Below, piece after piece: positions 8,104 through 36,694 of a DNA stretch of 44,044 nt. Location: contig CAZTVG010000005.1 in assembly GCA_964617015.1 (NCBI GenBank), forward strand, positions 1 to 44,044, read 5' to 3'. The position numbers and the translations under genes are program-made. This DNA is from Candidatus Woesearchaeota archaeon. GTDB taxonomy: Archaea; Nanobdellota; Nanobdellia; Pacearchaeales; GW2011-AR1. Each line of letters starts with the position of its first letter. Position 1 is the first letter of the stretch. Under the pieces are notes generated by a model. It was not told the origin of the DNA, did no database searches, and was given only the letters and a program-made list of their open reading frames with translations.

Positions 8104-8198
8104 CCTACTCTGATCTTGGGATAGCATTTATCGTGCTGCTAATCCTTGGTCTGACGCTGCTAAACGTCATACTAACAATATGGAGTATATCACAGTGA
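8100..8198 (+). CDS. Single-TM micro-protein (32 aa)
   Basis: GTGA-coupled to the nuclease; hydrophobic LGIAFIVLLILGLTLLNVILTIW; stop overlaps a GTG start of neuC. Confidence 0.5.
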   Translation: MTYSDLGIAFIVLLILGLTLLNVILTIWSISQ

Positions 8199-9328
8199 GA
8201 AGAATAATGGGGTTGACCGGGAAGAGGGGAGGTTACGGAGCTATGCGACCCATGCTGCGTCTAATGAGGGACGACCCTGAACTGGAATTGCAACTAGTTA
8301 CAACTGACATGCACCTAAAGGAGGAATTCGGGTTCACCTTGAACGAGGTAGAGGAGGACTTTGGAGATTCTATTGAGAAGATATTTATGAATATACAAGG
8401 GAGAGAAAGTAGGGCTGAGCAGCTGGCTGAACTCCACTTATGCCTCGCCACGATGTTTGGCCGAAGTGTACCGGATATCTTGGTTCTTATGGGTGATAGA
8501 GCAGAGAGCCTGATCGCAGCCGTTGTTGCAACTCAGTTCAACGTCCCCATCGCCCATATACAAGGGGGCGACACAACAGGAGGTATCGACAATCCCCAGA
8601 GAAACGCGATATCGAAGCTGGCACATGTTCACTTCACTTCGTGCCAGAGGAGTACACACGAACTGTGTATTTTGAACGAACTCCCTTGGCGCATCCACGA
8701 AGTTGGGGATCTCCACATTGATCCTATTGTACAGGGGGACTTTCTTCCGCAAGTCGAGGTGCGTGATAGGCTCGACCTTGGTAAACTAAGCCCTAGTGTT
8801 CCTATTATAACTGTGCTCCAGCACCCAGATACATACAATCCCACTGTATCGGGTGAACAGATGCAAATCACGCTCCAAGGAGTTGCCAGGGCTGTTAGTG
8901 ACAGAAATGTCGTGTGTATCTACCCCTGCTCAGATCAAGGGTACAAAGGGATAATTGACGAGCTAGAAGAATTTAGAGTCTATTCGGGACTGGCCCAAGT
9001 TCACAAGAACCTCCCGTCCCCCCTATTTCTTGGTCTATTAAACGTAACAGACGTGATCGTCGGCAACTCCTCTTCCGGGGTCATAGAGGCTCCATACTTC
9101 GGCCTCCGAGCGGTTGATATAGGCTATAGACAGAAGGGTAGATTGAGTTGCGATCTCACAAAGTGGGTTCCGCATGATTCTAACTTGATAGCCAAGGCCA
9201 TAAAGGAGAGTATAGAGACCGGACCTGGTAAGGTCAACAACACCCTGTATGGTGACGGCCACGCAGGGGAGAGGGTTGTTAAGGTACTCAAGGAACTGGA
9301 GATCAACAACAGGTTACTAAGAAAATGA
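8180..9328 (+). CDS. neuC: UDP-N-acetylglucosamine 2-epimerase, hydrolysing (NeuC family); likely start GTG 8195
   Basis: TGKRGGYG, GDRAE, HIQGGD, DNPQRNAISKLAHVHF, VGNSSSGVIEAP, IGYRQKGR motifs. Confidence 0.9.
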   Translation: MEYITVRRIMGLTGKRGGYGAMRPMLRLMRDDPELELQLVTTDMHLKEEFGFTLNEVEEDFGDSIEKIFMNIQGRESRAEQLAELHLCLATMFGRSVPDILVLMGDRAESLIAAVVATQFNVPIAHIQGGDTTGGIDNPQRNAISKLAHVHFTSCQRSTHELCILNELPWRIHEVGDLHIDPIVQGDFLPQVEVRDRLDLGKLSPSVPIITVLQHPDTYNPTVSGEQMQITLQGVARAVSDRNVVCIYPCSDQGYKGIIDELEEFRVYSGLAQVHKNLPSPLFLGLLNVTDVIVGNSSSGVIEAPYFGLRAVDIGYRQKGRLSCDLTKWVPHDSNLIAKAIKESIETGPGKVNNTLYGDGHAGERVVKVLKELEINNRLLRK

Positions 9329-9408
9329 ACGGAGATCTATTTCGTGTTGTGGCGTTTGTAGTTGTAGTGTGGCTTCTCGTGATCTCCCTCGCTATAAACT
9401 TGCTTTGA
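9325..9408 (+). CDS. Single-TM micro-protein (27 aa)
   Basis: ATGA-coupled to neuC; VVAFVVVVWLLVISLAINLL; stop overlaps repeat copy 4. Confidence 0.5.
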   Translation: MNGDLFRVVAFVVVVWLLVISLAINLL

Positions 9409-9425
9409 TTTAATTTCGTTCAAAC
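9403..9425. repeat. 23-bp repeat, copy 4 (reverse orientation)
   Basis: CTTTGATTTAATTTCGTTCAAAC followed by GAACT. Confidence 0.9.
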
Positions 9426-9437
9426 GAACTTGATATT

Positions 9438-10388
9438 ATGAAAAAGCCTGTTCTCCTTATTCAACCTGATTTAGTGTATCAGGAGAGCACTCTTCAGTAT
9501 ATGTCCGAAGAGTTCTCTCTGATGGGCTACGACGAGCTGGATAGTGAGAACTCCAACTTAGTGACAGTCATCTTCGCACCAAGACCATTCCCACTTGGTC
9601 TCTTCGTTAGAGACTTCCCAAATCTCAAGGTGATCGTATCCAACACAACATCCGTTGACCATCTCCCTATTAAAGAGGCAGAAGAAAGGGGAATAAAGAT
9701 AATCTCTCTCACTGACGACCGTGAGTTTCTTGAACAGATAACATGCACGGCTGAACACACGCTGGGTCTTATTATGGCAGCACACAGGAGGATACCAGCA
9801 GCTCATGCTGATGTGTGCGAGGGGAACTGGGATCGGACGAAGTGGAGGGCACCAAGGATGCTCTCTAAGATGAACCTTGGTGTGGTAGGAGCGGGCAGAG
9901 TAGGAGCCCACGTTGCCGGTATATGCAGTGGTATCTTCGAGTTAGTAAGGTGGTACGATCCCTATTACGACCCTAATTGGCTGGCCCCCTTATTCTACAA
10001 AGGCAAGGAGAGGGCCCACTCCCTGAACGGACTTGCCATCGATACGGATGTCCTCTGTATCTGTGCTGGACCGAGACAGGGGAGTATGGAGGTCATAGAT
10101 AGAGAGGTTCTCCGCCACCTTCGTCCAGGCGCAATAGTCGTCAACACAGCTCGCGCCGGACTTCTAGATGAGGATGCCCTGATTGACCTCCTTATAAGTG
10201 GTCATGTCCGTGCAGCTGCCCTCGATACTGCAAAGGGAGAGCCCCAAATATCCCCTAAGCTCGTGGCCTACGCGCAAGCTAGCAACAACCTCATCCTCAC
10301 CCCTCACATAGCTGGCTCAACAGAGGACGCCCTTGCCACGACTGAGAGGAGGGTGCTGGAGAAGGCACTGGAGACCCTAAATGGATAG
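9438..10388 (+). CDS. D-isomer-specific 2-hydroxyacid dehydrogenase (SerA-like fold)
   Basis: NTTSVDH, TAEHTLGLI, GVVGAGRVG Rossmann motif, VVNTARAG, ALDTAKGEP, LILTPHIAG. Confidence 0.9.
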   Translation: MKKPVLLIQPDLVYQESTLQYMSEEFSLMGYDELDSENSNLVTVIFAPRPFPLGLFVRDFPNLKVIVSNTTSVDHLPIKEAEERGIKIISLTDDREFLEQITCTAEHTLGLIMAAHRRIPAAHADVCEGNWDRTKWRAPRMLSKMNLGVVGAGRVGAHVAGICSGIFELVRWYDPYYDPNWLAPLFYKGKERAHSLNGLAIDTDVLCICAGPRQGSMEVIDREVLRHLRPGAIVVNTARAGLLDEDALIDLLISGHVRAAALDTAKGEPQISPKLVAYAQASNNLILTPHIAGSTEDALATTERRVLEKALETLNG

Positions 10389-10662
10389 GCAGAAAGTAAG
10401 TAAAGCAACATTAGAAAGGTTCGGAGGTGAAGTGACGAGGATAGCTGAAACTCTGGGACTGGACAATGAAAACTTCCTGAAATGTCTGCTAATAGTAGCT
10501 GCTTGGGTGTTCGTCCATGATAATCCAGAGCAATCGGATGAAGCTATTATAAGTAAGTTGTCCGATAGAAAGTTGTTAGGGCTATCCATATCTGTAGCAA
10601 GGGGTGTAGAGGGAGATTCCCACAGTGCAATGGATACCCCCTCTTGGGAGACGATACATTGA
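10381..10662 (+). CDS. Hypothetical protein (93 aa)
   Basis: Overlaps both neighbours, same strand. Confidence 0.5.
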   Translation: MDRQKVSKATLERFGGEVTRIAETLGLDNENFLKCLLIVAAWVFVHDNPEQSDEAIISKLSDRKLLGLSISVARGVEGDSHSAMDTPSWETIH

Positions 10663-11432
10663 AATTAACAATCTTAGTCCCCGCACGAGGAGAATCTAAA
10701 AACGTAATGCCTGTGAACGGCATCCCACTGGTTAAATACGCCCTTGCTGTCGCAGACAGGATCACCTCAGCAGGGGAGGTAAGCTACGGGACGATACACG
10801 GGATCGAAGGAGAAGCAGCAACTGCTACAACCACAGAGAGTAACATAAAGGCCTTCTGTTCAACGAACGACCTAACTATAATCCCGATGATTAAGAAATA
10901 CTCGTATGTCGCCCTGGACCACAGGCCACCCATGTACTGTCAAGGGGACCGGGGTGTTCACAACTGGGTTGCCGATTACTTTCTCCCTCGCTATGGCACT
11001 CCAGACTACCTAGCTCTAATTCAGCCAACCAATCCGTTTGTATCAGTCGGTGTGTTTGAGAAGGCTCTCCTGGCAATCTCGTCTGGGAGGAGGGACGTAG
11101 CATCTGTTCAGACAGTACATCAAGTTCCCCACATATATCACGCCTGGAATCAACGGCGCCGCCTTGGTGGTAGAGCCAACAGGACAGTGGAGTGGGTGTT
11201 CCCAAAAGTGGGAAAAACAAGCTGGGGTAAGGAAGGGAAACCGGAGTATTATGCATTTAGCAATCTTGTTATCGTCAAACCAGATGCCCTGATAGAACAG
11301 AAGACATTCTTCGCAGAGCCATCTATACCGTTGGTGGTGTCGAGGGCAGAGTCACTCGACATCGACACCCTTGAAGATGTTGCTGTTGCTGAGACGTATA
11401 TCAGGGAAAAGTTGGTGGAGGTCTATATATGA
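10644..11432 (+). CDS. neuA: Acylneuraminate cytidylyltransferase (NeuA/CMP-nonulosonate synthetase family), divergent P-loop
   Basis: LVPARGESK, NGIPLVKY, LIQPTNPF, LDIDTLED motifs. Confidence 0.8.
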   Translation: MGDDTLKLTILVPARGESKNVMPVNGIPLVKYALAVADRITSAGEVSYGTIHGIEGEAATATTTESNIKAFCSTNDLTIIPMIKKYSYVALDHRPPMYCQGDRGVHNWVADYFLPRYGTPDYLALIQPTNPFVSVGVFEKALLAISSGRRDVASVQTVHQVPHIYHAWNQRRRLGGRANRTVEWVFPKVGKTSWGKEGKPEYYAFSNLVIVKPDALIEQKTFFAEPSIPLVVSRAESLDIDTLEDVAVAETYIREKLVEVYI

Positions 11433-12586
11433 AAATCTTGATTCTGGGTGGAGCTGGGTATTTAGGCTGGCCGAGCGCGTTGTACCTCGCAGCAAGGGAC
11501 CATGAAGTGGGGATAGTAGATAACATCGTGAAGGAGAAGTGGGAGAAGATAGCTGGTGTCAAGCCTCTAGAACCCTATGTTCTCATGGTCAATCGTATGA
11601 AGGCGTGGGATGAGCGGGAACGCTGGCTCCAAGGCATGAGTCATATAGGTATAGATATCAGCGCCGAGCCCGGTCTGCTAAGTAAGAATCTGCGCCTTCT
11701 CAAACCCGAAGTGATAATCCACTACGCAGAACAACCGTCTGCTCCTTACTCCATGATGAACGACTCTGCCTGTTATGAGACCCAAAGGAACAATATACTC
11801 GGTACACTGAATCTCATACTGGCTGTTAGGGAGTGTTGTCCAGACGCACATATTGTTAAACTGGGTACAATGGGTGAGTACGGAGTGCCTAATATAGATA
11901 TAGAGGAAGGCTGGTTGGATGTTGAATATAAAGGGAGAAAGGACAACGTACTATTTCCCAAGAGGCCAGGATCTTTCTATCACTTGTCCAAAGTGCATGA
12001 CAGCCATAACCTTGAGTTTGCGTGTAGGACATGGGGACTTAGGGTCACTGATCTCAACCAAGGTATCGTTTACGGAACAGGGACGGTGGAGACAGACTTA
12101 CATCCAAATCTCCGAACCAGTTTCCACTACGACCACATCTTCGGGACTGTCCTAAACCGCTTTGTGACAGAAGCCGCTCTGGAACTCCCCTTGACAGTGT
12201 ACGGAAGTGGGAACCAGAGGAGGTGCTTCATCAGTATACTCGACGTAATGAAGTGTATTGAGCTAGTCTGCCTCAACCCACCCGCACCTGGGGAGTTCAG
12301 GGTATTTAATCAGTTCACAGAGGTAATTTCCCTCAAGAGGCTTGCTGTTCTGGTATCTGGAGTTGCCAAGTGTATGGGTCTGACGGGGAGTGTGGCAAAT
12401 CTAGAGAACCCAAGAGTTGAGAGTGAGGACCACTATTATAACCCCTCCAACAGCTCCCTTCTAGGAATGGGACTTGAACCCCACGAGTTGTCGAGTGATA
12501 GGATTGAACAGATGATACACTTTGTATACAAGAGGCGGGAGCTGGTTAACACCTCAACCCTCAATCCAAGGGTGGGATGGAGGTGA
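11429..12586 (+). CDS. sqdB: UDP-sulfoquinovose synthase (SqdB/SQD1/Agl3 family)
   Basis: GGAGYLGW, HYAEQPSAPYSM, KLGTMGEYG, PGSFYHLSKVHDSHN, TDLNQGIVYG, FGTVLNRF are diagnostic of the family. Confidence 0.92.
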   Translation: MKILILGGAGYLGWPSALYLAARDHEVGIVDNIVKEKWEKIAGVKPLEPYVLMVNRMKAWDERERWLQGMSHIGIDISAEPGLLSKNLRLLKPEVIIHYAEQPSAPYSMMNDSACYETQRNNILGTLNLILAVRECCPDAHIVKLGTMGEYGVPNIDIEEGWLDVEYKGRKDNVLFPKRPGSFYHLSKVHDSHNLEFACRTWGLRVTDLNQGIVYGTGTVETDLHPNLRTSFHYDHIFGTVLNRFVTEAALELPLTVYGSGNQRRCFISILDVMKCIELVCLNPPAPGEFRVFNQFTEVISLKRLAVLVSGVAKCMGLTGSVANLENPRVESEDHYYNPSNSSLLGMGLEPHELSSDRIEQMIHFVYKRRELVNTSTLNPRVGWR

Positions 12587-12690
12587 TAGGACCGAATTTC
12601 AAGTTCTGGAAATATGACGGAACAGACTGGCTCTTTGCAATCGTTATACTTCTGCTACTTGGACTCGGCACATTGGAGTGGATGCAATAA
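12583..12690 (+). CDS. Single-TM micro-protein (35 aa)
   Basis: GTGA-coupled to sqdB; WLFAIVILLLLGLGTLEW. Confidence 0.5.
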   Translation: MIGPNFKFWKYDGTDWLFAIVILLLLGLGTLEWMQ

Positions 12691-13454
12691 GTCACATCAA
12701 GATAGGGAAAAGAAAGATCGGTCCAGGAGAGCCCTGCTATATCGTAGCAGAGGCTGGACTCACGCACCTTGGGAGTTTGGACCTCGCACTTAGTATACTT
12801 GAGGATGTGAGGATATCAGGGGCAGAGGCGTTTAAGACGCAAGTGTTCGCCGTTGAGAGTAAGACACACCGTATCGAGAGGGCCCTATCATACAAGTCAC
12901 TTGTGCAGATTAAGGAAGCCATAGGTAGCGACCTGCACTTTATATTGACCCCTCACGACCTCTACGGAGTTGGCGCGATACGGGATATCGGAGTGGATGC
13001 TGTCAAGCTGGGATCTGGCGCGAAGGGGAACCTTGAACTTGTCAGAGCTGTGGCCGCATTGGGGAAGCCGGTCATAGCTTCCCTTGGGGGATATAAAGAA
13101 GACGATCTGTCTCTTCTCCTTGACAACCTGGAGGGGTGCAACGTAGCTCTTCTGCACTGCGTCAGTAGGTATCCTGTACCTGTGGAAGAAGCCGATCTGG
13201 GGAAAATAGCCTATATCAGAACGTACGGTCGTCTAGTAGGCTACTCAGACCACTGTAAAGACGAGATGGCCTCCTGCATCGCAGTTGCACTTGGGGCGTG
13301 TATAATAGAGAGGCATGTGATGCCATCCTTCTGCGTCGGCGTAAAGACCTCAATGGATCAGAAGGTTAGCATCAGGGCAAACGAGTTTCGCAACTTCGTA
13401 TTAGAAATCCGAGCGACTGAAAGGATGATTGATGGACCGCTGGGATCAGATTAG
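12678..13454 (+). CDS. neuB: N-acylneuraminate/nonulosonate synthase (NeuB family), lacking the C-terminal SAF/antifreeze-like domain
   Basis: IVAEAGLTH, AFKTQ, VKLGSG, LLHCVSRYP, GYSDH, GACIIERH; only 258 aa. Confidence 0.88.
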   Translation: MDAISHIKIGKRKIGPGEPCYIVAEAGLTHLGSLDLALSILEDVRISGAEAFKTQVFAVESKTHRIERALSYKSLVQIKEAIGSDLHFILTPHDLYGVGAIRDIGVDAVKLGSGAKGNLELVRAVAALGKPVIASLGGYKEDDLSLLLDNLEGCNVALLHCVSRYPVPVEEADLGKIAYIRTYGRLVGYSDHCKDEMASCIAVALGACIIERHVMPSFCVGVKTSMDQKVSIRANEFRNFVLEIRATERMIDGPLGSD

Positions 13455-16647: not shown

Positions 16648-17887
16648 AGTAAGGGTTGGAAAAAGATTTCGAGAAGAGTTTGGAGAAATGGAGGCTCTAG
16701 CTGCCTCTATCAAGGAGAAAGGAGTTGTCCAGCCAATAGCGGTTGATGGCTCTCTAAACCTGTTAGCCGGAGGTAGACGGCTGAGGGCGTGTGAAATGGC
16801 TGGGTTGGAGACAATCCCAGCTATTATATTGGATATAGATGAAGGGGAACTATCGCAACGTGAGATCGAGTTGATTGAGAACACACTGAGAAAGGATTTA
16901 AAATGGCAAGAGCTAGCCGCACTTGAGGAGAGGATATTTGAGTTGCGGAAGAAGGAGAACCCGAAGTGGACTGAGCGGGACCACGCCGAACTCATGGGAC
17001 ACTCTCAGTCAACAACACACAGGCGTTTGCAACTAGCATCAGTGTCAAGGGCAATTCCAGAACTCGCTGCGTGTGAGACTGAAGATAAGGCGTGGAAGAC
17101 GTTTAGTAGAATACAAGAGGACATGGCCCTTAGACAGCTCGAAAAGACTATAGATCGGGTTGATGATCCGTCAAAGTGGGCGACTGAAAATTACAAGTTG
17201 GGGGATGCTGTAGAGGGACTAACAAAGGTATCAGCGGGCGTCATGCACCTTGCAGAGGTTGATCCCCCATATGGTATAGGATTAGACGAGAGGAAGAGTA
17301 GGAACATAGATACATCCCCTATGGCCCGATACAACGAGTTAAGTGGGGAGGACTATGTAGGTCTTATTGAGAGGGCATCTGCCCAGGTGTTCAGGATCCT
17401 CCGAAGTAATGCCTTCTGCATCTGGTGGTTTGGTATGACTTGGTATCAGGTCACAATTGATGTACTAAGGGATGCCGGCTTCAAGGTCAACGACACCCCA
17501 GCTATATGGTACAAAGGGAAGGCAGGGCAGACAGCGACCCCTGACACGATGCTTGGATCCTGTTACGAACCATTCTTCATCGCCAGGAAGGGGAAACCTA
17601 AAATGAGGAGGTCTGGAAGAGGAAACGTATTTGACTACCCTGCTCTGCCTCCTACAAGGAAGATACATCCTACCGAGAAGCCACTGGAGTTGATGGTTGA
17701 TATATTAGATACCTTTTCGTATCCGGGGTTTGTTATCGTGTCTCCGTTTCTCGGAAGTGGAGTGACATTGAGAGCGGCGTATAGATTGAGTTTAACTGGG
17801 TTCGGGTTTGACCTTGATGAGGTAACGAGGCTTAGGTTCATTGGGAGGGTTAAGGAGGATAGAGAAGGTGAACTCCCCCTCAACTAG
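16619..17887 (+). CDS. ParB/Spo0J N-domain + HTH fused to an N6-adenine/N4-cytosine DNA methyltransferase
   Basis: GVVQPIAV, LLAGGRRLRA, ELIENTLRKDL (ParB); WTERDHAELMGHSQSTTHRRL (HTH); DPPY, HPTEKP, PFLGSG (beta-class MTase). Confidence 0.88.
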   Translation: MKAKLVKVNEVRVGKRFREEFGEMEALAASIKEKGVVQPIAVDGSLNLLAGGRRLRACEMAGLETIPAIILDIDEGELSQREIELIENTLRKDLKWQELAALEERIFELRKKENPKWTERDHAELMGHSQSTTHRRLQLASVSRAIPELAACETEDKAWKTFSRIQEDMALRQLEKTIDRVDDPSKWATENYKLGDAVEGLTKVSAGVMHLAEVDPPYGIGLDERKSRNIDTSPMARYNELSGEDYVGLIERASAQVFRILRSNAFCIWWFGMTWYQVTIDVLRDAGFKVNDTPAIWYKGKAGQTATPDTMLGSCYEPFFIARKGKPKMRRSGRGNVFDYPALPPTRKIHPTEKPLELMVDILDTFSYPGFVIVSPFLGSGVTLRAAYRLSLTGFGFDLDEVTRLRFIGRVKEDREGELPLN

Positions 17888-19955
17888 TCCGTGGGACTTT
17901 AAAAGCCCCTCGACCCAGTGGGTCAGTGCGCGGGAGAGGTTTGAGAGGCTATACATACCCGAGCCTAACACGGGCTGCTGGATCTGGATAGGTGTATGTG
18001 AAAAGAAGGGTTACGGACACTTCAAGTTTGCCGGTAGAACCCTTAAGGCCCACAGGGTTTCATATGAGATATACAAGGGCCCTATACCTCATGGCCTTCA
18101 GATAGATCACTTATGTAGAGTCCGGTGCTGTGTAAACCCAGATCACTTGGAAGCAGTCACCTGTTGGGAGAACATCCGCAGGGGGGACACTGGAAAGGCA
18201 ACAGCGGAGGTGAGAAAGGCGCTGACCCACTGCAAACGCGGCCACGAGTATACTGAGGCTAACACGTATAGGAATAAAAGGGGAAATAGGCATTGTAAGG
18301 CGTGTGTCAGGGAGAGAGGAAGGGGGGGAGAGTTGTGCGTGATGATTTCCCCCTGGTGCGAGGGCGATCCTAGCTCGAAAATAGCCCTAGTCCCTGAGGC
18401 TCCTGGACGCACAGAGATGCGCGGGGGGAGACCCCTTATCGGGCCAGCAGGCAAGGTGCTAGATGAGTGCCTTCACCAGGCAGGGATTGCTAGACGCGCT
18501 TGTTACATAATAAATGTGTTCCCTGTTTGTGTTGATAAGGAGGGGGACGGTATCTATCTCAACGGTGATCTCCTTTGGAGCGGAAGAAAGAGCTTCACTG
18601 AGGAGGGGATGAAACTAGCTAATGAGACCCTGACAAAACTTCGGGAGTGTGGGGCGAATGTAGTTGTTCCACTAGGCGGTGTAGCGGCAGATCTCCTGTG
18701 CAACAAGAAGAAGATAATGAAGTGGCGTGGTTCTATCCTATGGTCTGAGGCAGTTGATAAGAAGTCTGTCTTGGCTTGCCACCCTGCTGCATGTCTCAGG
18801 GGCCAGTACACTCTCCGCTATATCATCATCGCTGACTTGAAGCGCGCACGGAAGGAGAGTGAGTCACCTGTATATAGTCCCCCTGACCGAAACCTGATGA
18901 TCGATCCCACATTCAGCGAGGCTATAGACTTTATGCGTGAGATGGGGGACTCTAAGAGAATAGCAACGGATATTGAGGTTTTAAACCACCAGGTCTCCTG
19001 CTTTTCTCTCACAAACAGCCCCGACTACGCTATGTGTATACCCTTTATAGATGAGGAGGGGGACCATAGATGGTCTGAGGATCAGGAGGCTGAGGTATGG
19101 CTTACTTATGCAGGCCTTCTCAGCGATCCAGGCATAATGAAGATAAACCAGAACATCGTCTTCGATATGGCGGTCCTCTATCAGAAGAACCATATCATCT
19201 TCCGTGGTCCCATAGGGGACACAATGGTCGCTCAGCACCTCATGTACCCTGACTTCCCTAAGGGGTTGGATTTCATTGCATCTATCCATACACGCGAACC
19301 ATACTATAAGGACGAGGGGAAGATATGGCTCAAACCCCACCCAGATATGCGAGAGTTCTGGGGTTATAGTTGCAAGGATAGTGCGGTCGCCCTAGACGCC
19401 TGGGGGCCACTGGAGATTGAGATGGAGGAGGGTGAGTACCGGGTCACGCACGACTTCACTGTTGCTATGTACCCCTCCCTTGTATACATGATGTCAAAGG
19501 GGATGAAGGTTGATAGAGAGAGATTGGACAAGACAAAGGTAAGTATTAGTAACAAGATTAAGGAAACTGGAGAGGCACTGGAACAGGCGGCAGAAAGACC
19601 ATTTAATCCTTTATCGCCTAAACAATGTCAGGAGTACTTCTATGTTACAAAGGGGATTAAACCATACATCAGTAGATCAACCGGAAACGTCACCACAGAC
19701 GACAAGGCAATGGCAAGAATCTACCGACGGTACAGCTTACCGGAAGCTAAGTTGGTTCAAGAGATCAGGGCGCTCAAGAAACTTTATGGGACTTATCTCG
19801 ATGTTAGGATGGATAATGATAATCGTCTTCGTTGTTCCTATAACCCTCGTGGTACTTGGACGGGTCGTCTTAGCTCTAGTGCGACTGTCTTTGGAACTGG
19901 TCTAAACCTACAGAATCTCCATCCCCAGTTCAAAAGTTTTCTGGTGGCAGGGTGA
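17841..19955 (+). CDS. polA: HNH endonuclease fused in frame to family-4 UDG-like domain, 3'-5' exonuclease and N-terminal half of family A DNA polymerase
   Basis: GCWIW...AHRVSY...IDHLCRVRCCVNPDHL (HNH); EAPG, GPAG, HPAACLR (UDG); DIE, NIVFD, YSCKD (exo); TWTGRLSS, NLQN (PolA). Confidence 0.9.
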   Translation: MGGLRRIEKVNSPSTSPWDFKSPSTQWVSARERFERLYIPEPNTGCWIWIGVCEKKGYGHFKFAGRTLKAHRVSYEIYKGPIPHGLQIDHLCRVRCCVNPDHLEAVTCWENIRRGDTGKATAEVRKALTHCKRGHEYTEANTYRNKRGNRHCKACVRERGRGGELCVMISPWCEGDPSSKIALVPEAPGRTEMRGGRPLIGPAGKVLDECLHQAGIARRACYIINVFPVCVDKEGDGIYLNGDLLWSGRKSFTEEGMKLANETLTKLRECGANVVVPLGGVAADLLCNKKKIMKWRGSILWSEAVDKKSVLACHPAACLRGQYTLRYIIIADLKRARKESESPVYSPPDRNLMIDPTFSEAIDFMREMGDSKRIATDIEVLNHQVSCFSLTNSPDYAMCIPFIDEEGDHRWSEDQEAEVWLTYAGLLSDPGIMKINQNIVFDMAVLYQKNHIIFRGPIGDTMVAQHLMYPDFPKGLDFIASIHTREPYYKDEGKIWLKPHPDMREFWGYSCKDSAVALDAWGPLEIEMEEGEYRVTHDFTVAMYPSLVYMMSKGMKVDRERLDKTKVSISNKIKETGEALEQAAERPFNPLSPKQCQEYFYVTKGIKPYISRSTGNVTTDDKAMARIYRRYSLPEAKLVQEIRALKKLYGTYLDVRMDNDNRLRCSYNPRGTWTGRLSSSATVFGTGLNLQNLHPQFKSFLVAG

Positions 19956-20857
19956 CTGACCACATCCTCATTGAGTTTGATAAGGTCAGCGCTGAATGGA
20001 TATGTGTAGCTTATCTCAGCAACGATGCCAGGATGCTTGACGTTGTTAAACAGGGGAAAGATCCACATTTGATAACAGGCTCCCTTCTTTCAGGCGCACC
20101 TGAGGAGCTGGTAGCAAAGGAGGATAGACTTGTTAGAAAAGCAACAGACCCCATCGAAATTGAACATCTCCGCTCGCGTCTCCCAGAACTCAACGATTAT
20201 TTCCTTCCCCGCGTGTACTCAATTCGCCAGATGGCGAAGAGATGTAACCACGCTCTCAATTACGGAATGGGTTATAGAAGGTTCGCGCTCGAAACTGAGG
20301 TTGATGAAACCGAAGCGAAGCGGATAGTCAACACGTACTTCAACCAGGCGTATCCTGGGATTAAAATCTGGTGGGGCGCGATTGAGGAGCAACTCCGCCG
20401 AAATGATAGGACACTTGTGAACTGTTTTGGGAGGAAGTGTCGCCTTCTGGACGCTTGGGGCGTGGAGCTATTTGAGAAAGCCAGATCGTTTCTCCCTCAA
20501 TCAACTGTTACTGATATGGTACACGAGGGGATGATTAAGTGCTTTGACGATCAGTCCAGGCCATTCAGACCACTAGAACTCCTAGAGGATGGACATGACT
20601 CCCTCCTTTACCAATATCCTGTTGGGAGATGGAGGAGTATGGCATTTGCGGTTGCCAAGATGGCCTTCGACTATATGAGTCCAGTGGCTATATATAGCAT
20701 AAAGGAGTTCAAAATCGACACTGAAGTTACTATCGGTCTAGACTGGGGACACATGGAGAAGGTCAAGATAAGTCCAAGATACGAAGATATAAATAAGAAC
20801 GCGGAGAACATAAGGAAAACGTGGGAGAGGCTCCGTGGCGAAGCGAAAGCTGCATGA
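19952..20857 (+). CDS. polA: C-terminal catalytic half of family A DNA polymerase
   Basis: Motif A EFDKVSAEW, motif B RQMAKRCNHALNYG, motif C GHDS. Confidence 0.88.
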   Translation: MTDHILIEFDKVSAEWICVAYLSNDARMLDVVKQGKDPHLITGSLLSGAPEELVAKEDRLVRKATDPIEIEHLRSRLPELNDYFLPRVYSIRQMAKRCNHALNYGMGYRRFALETEVDETEAKRIVNTYFNQAYPGIKIWWGAIEEQLRRNDRTLVNCFGRKCRLLDAWGVELFEKARSFLPQSTVTDMVHEGMIKCFDDQSRPFRPLELLEDGHDSLLYQYPVGRWRSMAFAVAKMAFDYMSPVAIYSIKEFKIDTEVTIGLDWGHMEKVKISPRYEDINKNAENIRKTWERLRGEAKAA

Positions 20858-34623: not shown

Positions 34624-35006
34624 TACCTATGTTCCTCCTCGGATCCGGCGGCAGTTTGTTTGATTAAATTTCGTTCAACCGAACTTGCGGATTTCTTTGA
34701 CTTGGGCTTACGTTCCTCAGGTAGAACCAACCCAGTGTTGGCCCTTGCCTCTTTGGGGATCTTCCTCGCCTCCTCCCAGAACCACTCTTGCACATCGTCA
34801 GGCTTGATCCTATCACCCCCATCCGAGTAAAACACACCAGCCTGGCATATCACAGGAGGCTTACCCGGCTCAAGAATAACCTTCCCATCAGGTGAGTATA
34901 CATTCCCCTTGACAATGCGCACGTAAGGGGTCTTCTTTACCAGACGAACCTCACTGGTTCCAGGAACACGCTGATAATCATGCACCTTTTCGAGATTTAA
35001 TCCCAC
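34623..35006 (-). CDS. Hypothetical head-module protein (127 aa)
   Basis: SD AGGAGA; contains repeat copy 8 near 3' end. Confidence 0.6.
   Translation of the reverse strand: MGLNLEKVHDYQRVPGTSEVRLVKKTPYVRIVKGNVYSPDGKVILEPGKPPVICQAGVFYSDGGDRIKPDDVQEWFWEEARKIPKEARANTGLVLPEERKPKSKKSASSVERNLIKQTAAGSEEEHR
34658..34680. repeat. 23-bp repeat, copy 8 (reverse orientation, inside CDS)
   Basis: GTTTGATTAAATTTCGTTCAACC followed by GAACT. Confidence 0.85.
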
Positions 35007-35655
35007 GTTGCTTCTCCTTCCTCATCTGATCCTTGCGGTGGTATCCATAGTGAACACGAGTTAACTCACTCCCGGCCATTTTAACAGTGTTTGCGTACAA
35101 CATGGTGGTTTCAGCAGGGAGACGGAACTTGATCCCCTTCTCCTGGCACATCCCGAGGAGATAGGCGACTGCCATTCCACCCTTCTCCGCGAAATTCCCA
35201 TTTGGGTACACGAAGTCAGCTCCATAAACACTGAGTCTCTCAACCTCGATGTACATGGCGTAGGCGATCATATAAGAAACAGTGTTCTGAGTGAAGATGT
35301 CGTCCTTTATATACTCCATGACCTCGTGGAGGGGATATGCCACAGCGTTTGGATAGTCGTGATAGACGGTGCTGACCATAGTGGGCTTGTTGTGCTTCCT
35401 AACCCACCTAGCGTACGTCTTATCATGCTTCTCCAACCACCTCAGATCGTCCATGAGGAAGAGTTTATCGTGCATAAACCCCCTCAGGCCTCGATTGAGG
35501 GTCCACACCTCATCAAATGGGTTCTTCATCCCAGGGGTGGACATAGATTCAGCTATAACCGCCTTACAACTAGGACCAAGAGCAACCACCGCGACGTGCT
35601 TGGGACGGGTTAATAGGGGGTCAACCCAGAGACCCTCTTTGTTGGCGGCTTCCAT
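34978..35655 (-). CDS. Putative sialyltransferase-fold glycosyltransferase (CstII GT42 / GT29 / Maf-like)
   Basis: VAVVALGPS, FDEVWTLN, NTVSYMIAYAMYIEVERLSVYGADF parallel the CstII segments VIIAGNGPS, FDVFRCN, TSGVYMCAVAIALGYKEIYLSGIDF (recalled). Confidence 0.65.
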   Translation of the reverse strand: MEAANKEGLWVDPLLTRPKHVAVVALGPSCKAVIAESMSTPGMKNPFDEVWTLNRGLRGFMHDKLFLMDDLRWLEKHDKTYARWVRKHNKPTMVSTVYHDYPNAVAYPLHEVMEYIKDDIFTQNTVSYMIAYAMYIEVERLSVYGADFVYPNGNFAEKGGMAVAYLLGMCQEKGIKFRLPAETTMLYANTVKMAGSELTRVHYGYHRKDQMRKEKQRGIKSRKGA

Positions 35656-35667
35656 GCGGGTATCCCC

Positions 35668-36153
35668 CTACCATCCGACTGCTTCAAAGTAGAAGGACAG
35701 TGTGTTGGGGAGAACTGTGACCTTCCAGGTTGTCGGGAGTTCCTTCAGTTCCGTTGCCCCACCAGGACCAGCGGTTGTGTACTGACCCATGAAACCACGG
35801 ATTGCGTGACCAGAGGGCTCGTACTTCCACAACACCTCGTTTGCATGAACCGTGTTGTTGAAGCCTTCACCTCTCATGATTATGTAGGTGAGATTGCGGT
35901 GCATACCGTAGCTGGTATCGCCCTTCGCTGTTGAGACCGCCCATGTTGGGAGGGGGATGCCACCAACAGAAGGGTATACCAAGTCTGTCCCGGCTTGGTC
36001 TAGGTCAAGACGCACATCTGTACGCCTTACTTTACCTACAACATAGCCGTACCTTCTCGGATCTGGACTAGCGTGACCAGCGCCAGTCATAGAACCAGTC
36101 ACAATAGTCGGAAGGACATTAACTGTCCAGCATGTTGCTGTTAAGTTTGCCAT
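35668..36153 (-). CDS. Thr-rich head-associated protein (161 aa)
   Basis: SD AGGAGG; second gene after the capsid. Confidence 0.6.
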   Translation of the reverse strand: MANLTATCWTVNVLPTIVTGSMTGAGHASPDPRRYGYVVGKVRRTDVRLDLDQAGTDLVYPSVGGIPLPTWAVSTAKGDTSYGMHRNLTYIIMRGEGFNNTVHANEVLWKYEPSGHAIRGFMGQYTTAGPGGATELKELPTTWKVTVLPNTLSFYFEAVGW

Positions 36154-36238: not shown

Positions 36239-36694
36239 TTAGGTTGTTGCCTGCATAGACGTAACGTTGCTAGGATCTTCCCACCTGGGCTCAACATACA
36301 GCATAACTTTCGCCAACACACCAGCAGTTGCAGCCGTGGTACAACGGAAGTCAACAATCTGTCCAGGCTTGATCTCAATGATACGAGTCGGAGTGAAGTA
36401 TACTGACTTGTGGATCGCGCCAGCGCTAGGTAACCCGATACCGAACAGCTTCGTGGGGGTGCCGGCAACACTGATGTCTGACTCAAACGAACACTCGACA
36501 GCACCACCAGTTAGAGCGGTTGTGACAAGCGGGATGATTGCTGCACCTCTGATGATATGAGGCACCATACCTGGTCCCCATCTAGCAGCAGGCGTGGTAA
36601 CTGCCAAGTTGACCCCGTTCGCCTTTCCCGTCACTAGGACGGTCGGGTTGTAAGGGATCATTTCGACCTCATACTTAGAGTGTGTGTATGCCAC
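36239..36694 (-). CDS. Probable capsid decoration/cement protein (151 aa)
   Basis: SD AAAGGAG; immediately downstream of major capsid; beta-rich. Confidence 0.6.
   Translation of the reverse strand: MAYTHSKYEVEMIPYNPTVLVTGKANGVNLAVTTPAARWGPGMVPHIIRGAAIIPLVTTALTGGAVECSFESDISVAGTPTKLFGIGLPSAGAIHKSVYFTPTRIIEIKPGQIVDFRCTTAATAGVLAKVMLYVEPRWEDPSNVTSMQATT

Follow-up and report, generated by a model that had tools for sequence, protein, structure and literature searches.

A conserved nonulosonate-type sugar module and a putative sugar transferase among the head genes of an uncultured phage

Introduction

Does a phage that carries the genes for an acidic sugar use that sugar on its own particle? The question is raised by the stretch of 44,044 nucleotides (nt) analysed here, called the window in the following, which covers almost all of a metagenomic phage contig of 44,132 bp (ENA ERZ23500256, scaffold_54). 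At 8180-13454 it holds a cluster that encodes NeuC-, NeuA- and NeuB-type enzymes together with a 2-hydroxyacid dehydrogenase (2HADH) and a UDP-sulfoquinovose synthase of the SqdB type. Enzymes of the NeuC, NeuB and NeuA families convert a UDP-2-acetamido sugar to a CMP-activated nine-carbon keto-acid. In the head module lies an open reading frame (ORF) at 34978-35655, which a first-pass annotation of the window had described as a sialyltransferase-fold protein and as the sole candidate consumer of such a donor. It had proposed that the phage makes its own CMP-nonulosonate early in infection and attaches it to virion proteins late. Its observation of the locus is confirmed by our analysis, and its interpretation is partly supported. 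We find that the five enzymes form one conserved module and that the head-module protein, a putative CMP-sugar transferase, belongs to a two-gene accessory cassette. That the phage coats a virion protein with its own acidic sugar is the best reading of the locus, and we favour it with modest confidence.

Results

All five genes named by the first-pass annotation are present as intact ORFs, and the cluster lies among the replication genes on the plus strand. Together with a sixth intact ORF of 93 amino acids (aa), which it had not mentioned, they span 5275 nt or 12% of the window, all on the plus strand. The spacing by ORF coordinates is tight, with four overlaps of 8, 19, 4 and 26 nt and two gaps of 109 and 91 nt. 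The cluster overlaps the dCMP deaminase gene and lies near the ParB-methyltransferase gene of the replication module. Promoter and terminator consensus scans of the cluster gave nothing above chance.

NeuC passes the equivalog cut-off of its NCBIfam model (TIGR03568 NeuC_NnaA, 291.5 bits against 235.9), matches PF02350 with an E-value of 1.6e-56 and has orthologs that occupy the same module in phage relatives and bacteria. For 2HADH, the best NCBIfam model is PGDH. Its catalytic Arg and His are invariant in the homolog alignment, and its identity to the counterpart in a bacterial locus (L147, described below) is 43%. SqdB aligns end to end with Arabidopsis SQD1 (1QRR; residues 2-385, 395 bits) and keeps KLGTMGEYG and SFYHLSKVHDSHN; the catalytic Thr and Tyr-His-x-x-Lys are retained. 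It stays under the NCBIfam equivalog cut-off (NF041015, 408.7 bits against 575) and is 51% identical to SqdB of the L147 module. The cytidylyltransferase, for which the metagenome gene call places the start at 10707 (241 aa), has no Pfam match and reaches 39.8 bits (E 3.8e-10) with the PseF model, under its cut-off of 205.7. Its N-terminal PARGxSK and C-terminal DIDTxED motifs align to the CMP-NeuAc synthetase 6IFD, and along its full length it shares 32% identity (E 1e-33) with a Pfam-positive CTP_transf_3 protein of the syntenic L147 locus. NeuB retains the motifs EAG..H, K.Q and KLGSG and the metal-binding SDH and ERH. It has no C-terminal SAF domain, because the ORF ends at 258 residues, and it misses the equivalog cut-offs (TIGR03569, 133 bits against 399.65). 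The best PDB match, 6NCS, is itself SAF-less, and identity to the nearest cellular NeuB, LegI and PseI is at most 38%. The 93-aa ORF gives only a marginal match to the Fis-type HTH_8 (E 0.004); it is present only in copies of the same phage (L001, L002) and has no counterpart in relatives.

The same five enzymes occur together in no fewer than nine related phage contigs, and also in other phage lineages and in three bacterial loci. Replication proteins about 50% identical accompany it in the related carriers L065/L078, L066, L067/L070, L068, L069, L071, L084, L123, L144 and L484, where L068-L146 denote IMG/VR loci from a collection-wide, pattern-based SqdB scan. The order NeuC-2HADH-NeuA-SqdB-NeuB is found in L069, L084, L144 and L484, and the same order is seen in part in L066, L067, L071 and L123. 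In L065/L078 a dCMP deaminase gene stands between SqdB and NeuB. As the module enzymes of related phages share only 26-60% identity, the set has persisted over a long divergence. Different orders are seen in other phage lineages, namely SqdB-NeuB-NeuC beside terminase (L072), NeuA-NeuB-SqdB (L081) and NeuB-SqdB-NeuC-NeuA (L139). Through the nearest SAF-containing NeuB homologs we reached the bacterial-type contig L147, which has NeuB-NeuC-2HADH-NeuA-SqdB. When GTDB was scanned with the dehydrogenase, the same block came up in an Alphaproteobacteria metagenome-assembled genome (MAG; L148) and in Candidatus Proximibacter danicus (L186), where the genes are ordered as in the window. In a Burkholderiales MAG (L149), another short-chain dehydrogenase/reductase (SDR) takes SqdB's place. 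The blocks of L147 and L148 belong to surface-polysaccharide loci, with genes for ABC transporters, glycosyltransferases, Capsule_synth proteins, aminotransferases and methyltransferases around them. We conclude that the five enzymes are one conserved module and not a chance collection, since the set recurs in phage relatives, in other phage lineages and in bacterial loci. At the DNA level, a megablast search of GenBank phages gave zero matches to the sugar cluster.

The surroundings of the module vary. Flanking the bacterial blocks (L147, 391-13867; L148, 232-15971; L186; L149) are genes for a protein of the sulfatase family, a PhyH dioxygenase, methyltransferases, ABC transporters and a Capsule_synth protein resembling KpsC/KpsS; the NeuB-NeuC-2HADH-NeuA-SqdB blocks appear to represent an uncharacterised surface-glycan pathway of Proteobacteria. 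Relative to the PD-(D/E)XK nuclease gene, the cluster is downstream in the window and upstream in 3300009414_001661 (L069/L315), and the dCMP deaminase gene is inside, beside or far from the cluster, depending on the relative. More than 100 viral contigs have SqdB-type genes; at 65 of 79 loci, Neu genes are missing within 10 kb. Many of these Neu-less loci read PD-(D/E)XK nuclease-AAA_24-dCMP deaminase-SqdB-ParB-methyltransferase-PolA; others adjoin a tail tube gene.

The gene of the putative transferase stands between those of the major capsid protein and the head-tail adaptor, so that its placement in the head module by the first-pass annotation holds. Searches of Pfam, PHROG and PDB sequences gave no match. 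Single-protein scans of IMG/VR and GTDB found no close relatives of either this protein or NeuB, and alignments were needed as queries. An exhaustive HMMER search defines a family of 1051 representative proteins (E < 1e-3). A single-sequence AlphaFold model was useless, with a predicted local distance difference test score (pLDDT) of 39; the model built with a 110-homolog alignment has a pLDDT of 92 and a predicted template modelling score of 0.87. With the latter, every one of the top 14 Foldseek matches in the PDB is a Campylobacter Cst-II or Cst-I sialyltransferase (E 9e-6 to 1e-3, probability 1.0, template modelling score (TM) about 0.5), which bears out the fold that had been proposed. 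The next match is the archaeal MptE HPPK 8SD5 (E 1.2e-3). MptE is the founding member of the Pfam MptE-like/DUF115 family, which also includes the Maf flagellin glycosyltransferases. Among viral structures the matches are uncharacterised phage proteins, some of them labelled MptE-like or DUF115.

At the sequence level, the family profile finds Cst-II/Cst-I as its best match among PDB sequences with a non-significant E-value of 0.2-1.1, at the nucleotide-sugar-binding motif of Cst-II, NTVxYAxAYA..G.KE..LYG.DF. PF01973 does not match the window protein and matches 4 of 50 homologs (best E 5.4e-5). Invariant in the family are G27, N54, D70, G145, D147 and E157. According to the predicted structure, the sialyltransferase resemblance holds at the fold level; by sequence, the transferase is not a member of GT42. 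Its chain is short, and inspection by eye reveals no hydrophobic segment. It is the only recognisable candidate consumer, as had been claimed: the Pfam scan, which took in every window ORF of at least 200 aa, found no other glycosyltransferase. An N-terminal S-adenosylmethionine (SAM)-methyltransferase domain is found in 13 of 50 homologs. Such a fusion in Microcystis phage Mvi-Yong1342-1 (L004, 19647-20450) is annotated as 'type 11 methyltransferase' and stands directly upstream of the small terminase.

Independently of the transferase, a capsid-protein search gathered 80 related head modules. The transferase and its neighbour p161 are present in 41 of them and absent in 29, the other 10 being too short to call. 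The order is major capsid protein-orf151-p161-transferase-p127 where the pair is present and major capsid protein-orf151-p127 where it is absent, with no room for two genes. Since p161 and the transferase are present or absent together, they are a two-gene accessory cassette. No match to p161 was found among Pfam, PHROGs and PDB profiles; conserved within it are the motifs YPSSGGIPLP, GMVRN.DY and ELPTTW, and EAVGW at the C-terminus. The neighbouring orf151 occurs in head modules with and without the cassette. Table 1 lists the features.

Table 1. Features of the sugar cluster and of the transferase region in the window
Feature	Coordinates	Strand	Basis or remark
NeuC-type hydrolysing UDP-sugar 2-epimerase, 382 aa	8180..9328	+	TIGR03568, PF02350
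D-isomer 2-hydroxyacid dehydrogenase, 316 aa	9438..10388	+	PF02826 E 3e-34
93-aa ORF, no assigned function	10381..10662	+	overlaps dehydrogenase and cytidylyltransferase genes
Divergent NeuA/PseF-type cytidylyltransferase, 262 aa	10644..11432	+	weak PseF match, no Pfam match
SqdB/SQD1-type UDP-sulfoquinovose synthase, 385 aa	11429..12586	+	1QRR alignment
NeuB-family nonulosonate synthase, TIM barrel only, 258 aa	12678..13454	+	PF03102 E 2.6e-36
Cst-II/Maf-fold putative CMP-sugar transferase, 225 aa	34978..35655	-	AlphaFold2 model and Foldseek
p161, transferase partner; candidate acceptor or helper	35668..36153	-	shared presence/absence with the transferase
orf151, between capsid gene and p161	36239..36694	-	detectable in 51 of 80 related head modules

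To what extent do cassette and cluster go together? Terminase-centred loci that show both the head side and the early side were taken as doubly informative. The cluster is present in all three doubly informative genomes that have the cassette (the window and IMG/VR 3300009414_001661 and 3300038315_000822). Eight cassette-less genomes have no cluster within 10 kb upstream of TerL, where relatives carry it, and 0 of 14 near-complete cassette-less contigs are in the list from the collection-wide SqdB scan. Among close relatives, we never saw the cluster where the transferase was missing. The co-occurrence expected by the first-pass annotation is thus found among close relatives, three of three against eight. 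It does not extend to three distant contigs that have the transferase and are outside the SqdB list, and the transferase family is far wider than the cluster.

Direct neighbourhood of sugar genes and transferase is observed in several phages. In L068 a transferase paralog lies inside the operon (2HADH-NeuA-transferase-SqdB-orf-NeuB), and the same genome also has the head-module copy. An unrelated HK97-type phage (L048, 2728-9426) has the order portal-prohead protease-CTP_transf_3-orf-NeuB(+SAF)-transferase-major capsid protein, and another unrelated phage (L063) has CTP_transf_3-NeuB(+cupin)-methyltransferase-orf-transferase-large terminase. In L040, NeuA adjoins TerL and the transferase cassette is also present. 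A NeuA-like gene with or without NeuB stands beside terminase in a more distant subgroup (L040, L376/L381, L428, L480, L504), in which an SqdB-less version of the pathway may serve. Within this subgroup, L376 (4741-8600), L381 and L428, whose TerL proteins are about 58-62% identical, carry two NeuB-family ORFs and NeuA directly upstream of terminase and no SqdB. This arrangement may be a second version of the sugar module.

The genome falls into two halves. From 1 to 22 kb the plus strand carries small early ORFs, a PD-(D/E)XK nuclease, the sugar cluster, dCMP deaminase, an AAA_24 ATPase, the ParB-methyltransferase, a split family-A polymerase and a DUF3987 primase/helicase. From 22.4 to 43.3 kb the minus strand carries a GH108 lysin, tail proteins, an SU10-type adaptor, the major capsid protein, scaffold, portal and large terminase. 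No integrase-sized ORF with a recombinase domain was found among the Pfam-scanned ORFs of the window, and the phage has its own DNA polymerase; for these two reasons it looks virulent.

Discussion

What could the module make? SqdB, an SDR, acts on a UDP-hexose by oxidation at C4, elimination across C5-C6 and addition of sulfite at C6. In the routes to legionaminic acid (Leg) and pseudaminic acid (Pse), an SDR 4,6-dehydratase acts first and leads to 9-deoxy products. Because SqdB and the dehydrogenase are conserved members of the module in phages and bacteria, the product is probably not ordinary sialic acid. Analogy with the Leg and Pse pathways, and the different SDR at the same place in L149, suggest that SqdB may feed a 6-sulfo hexose into the route, which would yield a 9-sulfonated acid. 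The cluster product is therefore probably a modified nonulosonate, possibly 9-sulfonated, rather than plain N-acetylneuraminic acid (Neu5Ac). The Neu-type route named by the first-pass annotation stands, with an ordinary sialic acid as an improbable product. We also considered SqdB as a sulfolipid auxiliary gene. We dropped this reading, as the gene is embedded in the Neu block and no sulfoquinovosyltransferase of the SqdX, SQD2 or SqdD kind was found: no glycosyltransferase domain turned up in the window ORFs of at least 200 aa.

In the mechanism that we propose, the five-enzyme module, borrowed from bacterial surface-polysaccharide loci, would be expressed early in infection. NeuC would free a 2-acetamido hexose of the mannosamine type from a UDP-sugar, the SAF-less NeuB would join it with phosphoenolpyruvate (PEP) to a nine-carbon 2-keto-3-deoxy acid, and the NeuA-like enzyme would activate this acid using CTP. 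SqdB and 2HADH would tailor the precursor or the product, with SqdB taking the slot that the 4,6-dehydratase has in the Leg and Pse pathways. Late in infection, the soluble 225-aa enzyme of the Cst-II/Maf fold would be expressed from its cassette with p161, between the capsid and adaptor genes, and would move the CMP-sugar onto a virion protein, for which p161 and the capsid protein are candidates. We infer this attachment from gene position only; reaction order, sugar structure and the identities of donor and acceptor are likewise predicted.

Modification of a virion protein is the best reading because the transferase is constantly placed in morphogenesis modules of several architectures, because it is paired with p161, because it is small and has no obvious membrane segment, and because Maf enzymes provide a precedent. 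A more specific version goes further. The module would make an undescribed C-sulfonated nonulosonate, for example a 9-deoxy-9-sulfo analogue of sialic acid, with SqdB replacing the 4,6-dehydratase; a new phage-specific family of Cst-II-fold protein glycosyltransferases would attach it to p161 as a capsid-associated acceptor, and the virions would become strongly anionic and sialidase-resistant. We regard this full version as speculative and rather unlikely.

Several points weigh against virion-protein modification. The structural similarity to Cst-II/Cst-I reaches a TM of only about 0.5, and the columns of the 50- and 110-sequence alignments contain no invariant or near-invariant His that would correspond to His188, the catalytic base of Cst-II. 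The transferase family is mostly found in head modules with no sugar genes nearby. Of its distant members, the majority have only structural neighbours (SU10 adaptor, portal, capsid, protease, connectors, tail tube); presumably they use host-made donors. Three long contigs of the more distant subgroup (L278, L290, L293) are those that have the transferase cassette and are absent from the SqdB list. In L047/L080, SqdB stands next to terminase with two transferase copies and no Neu gene in 22 kb, and L062 has SqdB and the transferase with Neu genes not seen. The window's SqdB is equally close to plant SQD1 and to the module-linked copies, so that production of UDP-sulfoquinovose as a second donor may be its whole role. 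In bacteria, the module serves glycans of the cell surface. The sample for co-occurrence is small (three against eight), its genomes are related and shared ancestry is uncorrected; 'no cluster' in it means none within 10 kb of TerL together with absence from a pattern-based SqdB scan. Finally, the whole case rests on sequence and models of an uncultured phage.

The module and the transferase could instead remodel the lipopolysaccharide, capsule or flagellin of the infected cell, which would block superinfection or the sticking of progeny to debris and leave the virions unmodified. Cst-II, the fold match, sialylates lipooligosaccharide. Host-surface conversion is a serious rival, since the bacterial homes of the module are surface-glycan loci with ABC transporters and Capsule_synth transferases and since prophages are known to retailor capsule nonulosonates (EpaA/EpaB, PMC12053666; O-acetyltransferases, PMC6586298). 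We nevertheless consider it unlikely. The transferase is always found within virion morphogenesis modules, in several unrelated phage types, and travels with p161 as a cassette between capsid and connector genes. Its short chain without a visible hydrophobic segment and the apparently virulent nature of the phage likewise speak against a role at the host surface.

Two separate donors are a more doubtful explanation. SqdB would then make UDP-sulfoquinovose and the Neu enzymes an ordinary CMP-nonulosonate, and the transferase, or some members of its family, would move sulfoquinovose or a host-made sugar. The canonical nature of SqdB with its kept catalytic residues, the many viral SqdB loci without Neu genes, and the Neu-less combination of SqdB (beside TerL in L047/L080) with two transferase copies there and with the transferase in L062 are what this explanation would predict. 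Against it, three bacterial loci and several independent phage arrangements have SqdB within the NeuBCA block, and no SqdX/SQD2-type partner was found among the scanned window ORFs. It is NeuA, alone or together with NeuB, rather than SqdB that is most often tied to the transferase (L048, L063, L040, L068), and the fold relatives of the transferase bind CMP-sugars.

Hypermodification of the phage DNA, with the acidic sugar placed on bases to evade restriction as with Kdo and other glycans on 5-hydroxymethylcytosine (bioRxiv 10.1101/2023.12.21.572611), is very improbable: the location of the cluster in the replication module, overlapping dCMP deaminase and near the ParB-methyltransferase, and the many Neu-less phages with SqdB between dCMP deaminase and polymerase would fit it, but no TET/5mYOX enzyme, pyrimidine hydroxymethylase or known DNA glycosyltransferase is found among the scanned window ORFs, and the transferase sits with p161 in the head module and is not of the GT-A/GT-B DNA-glycosyltransferase type.

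How does virion-protein modification by this phage compare with known systems? Bacterial NeuC/NeuB/NeuA pathways, including those for Leg and Pse, likewise hold a 2-epimerase, a PEP-condensing synthase and a CMP-activating enzyme in one cluster, and the Leg and Pse pathways have an SDR at the 4,6-dehydratase position. In contrast, the SDR of the phage cluster is a UDP-sulfoquinovose synthase, the 2-hydroxyacid dehydrogenase is obligatory, aminotransferase and acetyltransferase are missing, the SAF domain of NeuB is lost and NeuA is very divergent. In the literature searched we found no paper that joins sulfoquinovose with nonulosonic acids, or this dehydrogenase type with neuBCA. With Cst-II/Cst-I (CAZy GT42), its best structural match, the transferase shares an N-terminal G-x-S nucleotide loop and the motif ...YA.A.A..G.KE..L.G.DF. 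It differs in having no significant sequence match, a low TM, and invariant Asp and Glu in place of a conserved histidine, and its family resides in head modules and is sometimes fused to a SAM methyltransferase.

The closest functional analogy is with the Maf/DUF115/MptE-like proteins (PF01973), which share the fold superfamily of the phage transferase. Maf enzymes are cytoplasmic and transfer CMP-activated Pse, Leg, Neu5Ac or Kdo (3-deoxy-D-manno-octulosonate) onto Ser/Thr of a self-assembling structural protein. Attachment of Neu5Ac and Kdo to Ser/Thr by Maf is described in bioRxiv 10.1101/2020.06.03.131540. Unlike Maf, the phage protein is a minimal single domain without accessory domains, and its presumed acceptor is a virion protein, not flagellin. 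Glycosylated virions are reported for mycobacteriophages (Freeman 2023, as cited in PMC12801897), where phage-encoded glycosyltransferases decorate capsid and tail proteins. These mycobacteriophages reportedly use host nucleotide sugars and ordinary glycosyltransferases encoded away from the structural genes, whereas here the donor pathway is phage-borne and its predicted product is an acidic C9 keto-acid.

Genes of Acinetobacter prophages, namely EpaA/EpaB with a cytidylyltransferase domain and oxidoreductases, and O-acetyltransferases, also act on nonulosonic acids. EpaA/EpaB epimerise C8 of pseudaminic acid by oxidation and reduction (PMC12053666), which by analogy offers a precedent for a dehydrogenase as tailoring enzyme. 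These prophages are temperate and modify only a host-made capsule sugar, whereas the whole pathway is phage-borne here and linked to a head-module gene. To SQD1/SqdB and the archaeal Agl3, the phage SqdB shows full-length orthology with kept catalytic residues. Unlike them, it lies within a NeuBCA block and lacks a sulfolipid synthase partner. As Agl3 shows, a UDP-sulfoquinovose synthase can supply its product to protein glycans (PMC4388408), and an earlier viral SqdB copy was noted only as an isolated auxiliary gene (PMC7785012).

Mycobacteriophage virion glycosylation, isolated viral NeuB or SqdB genes and prophage tailoring of host nonulosonates are thus already known separately. The literature searched holds no complete phage-borne nonulosonate pathway with SqdB and the dehydrogenase as fixed members, nor the same module in bacteria, nor a widespread Cst-II-fold family in phage head modules that co-varies with a nonulosonate module. 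If the phage does modify its virion protein, virion glycosylation would extend beyond mycobacteriophages, and a large uncharacterised family of about 1000 representative clusters, found in the head modules of many environmental phages, would turn out to consist of sugar transferases that modify capsids. Some phages would then carry a full donor pathway and be independent of the host glycome, which would bear on virion charge, stability, aggregation, recognition by grazers or immune systems, and phage engineering. Beyond that, the recurrent NeuC-2HADH-NeuA-SqdB-NeuB module points to an undescribed nonulosonic-acid derivative that would link the sugar chemistry of sulfoquinovose and sialic acid.

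A cyanophage host was considered, prompted by the closeness of SqdB to plant SQD1 and by a weak match to the 'type 11 methyltransferase' of a Microcystis phage. We dropped it, given the same module in Alpha- and Betaproteobacteria MAGs and a lysin of the GH108/PG_binding_3 type. The family-A DNA polymerase of the window is split into two plus-strand ORFs (17841-19955 and 19952-20857), the first of which has HNH endonuclease and uracil-DNA-glycosylase-superfamily domains ahead of its exonuclease. A metagenome contig of 91,698 bp (Ga0193738_1000036; L447/L448), in which a related phage genome of about 46 kb is present twice, is probably an assembled concatemer.

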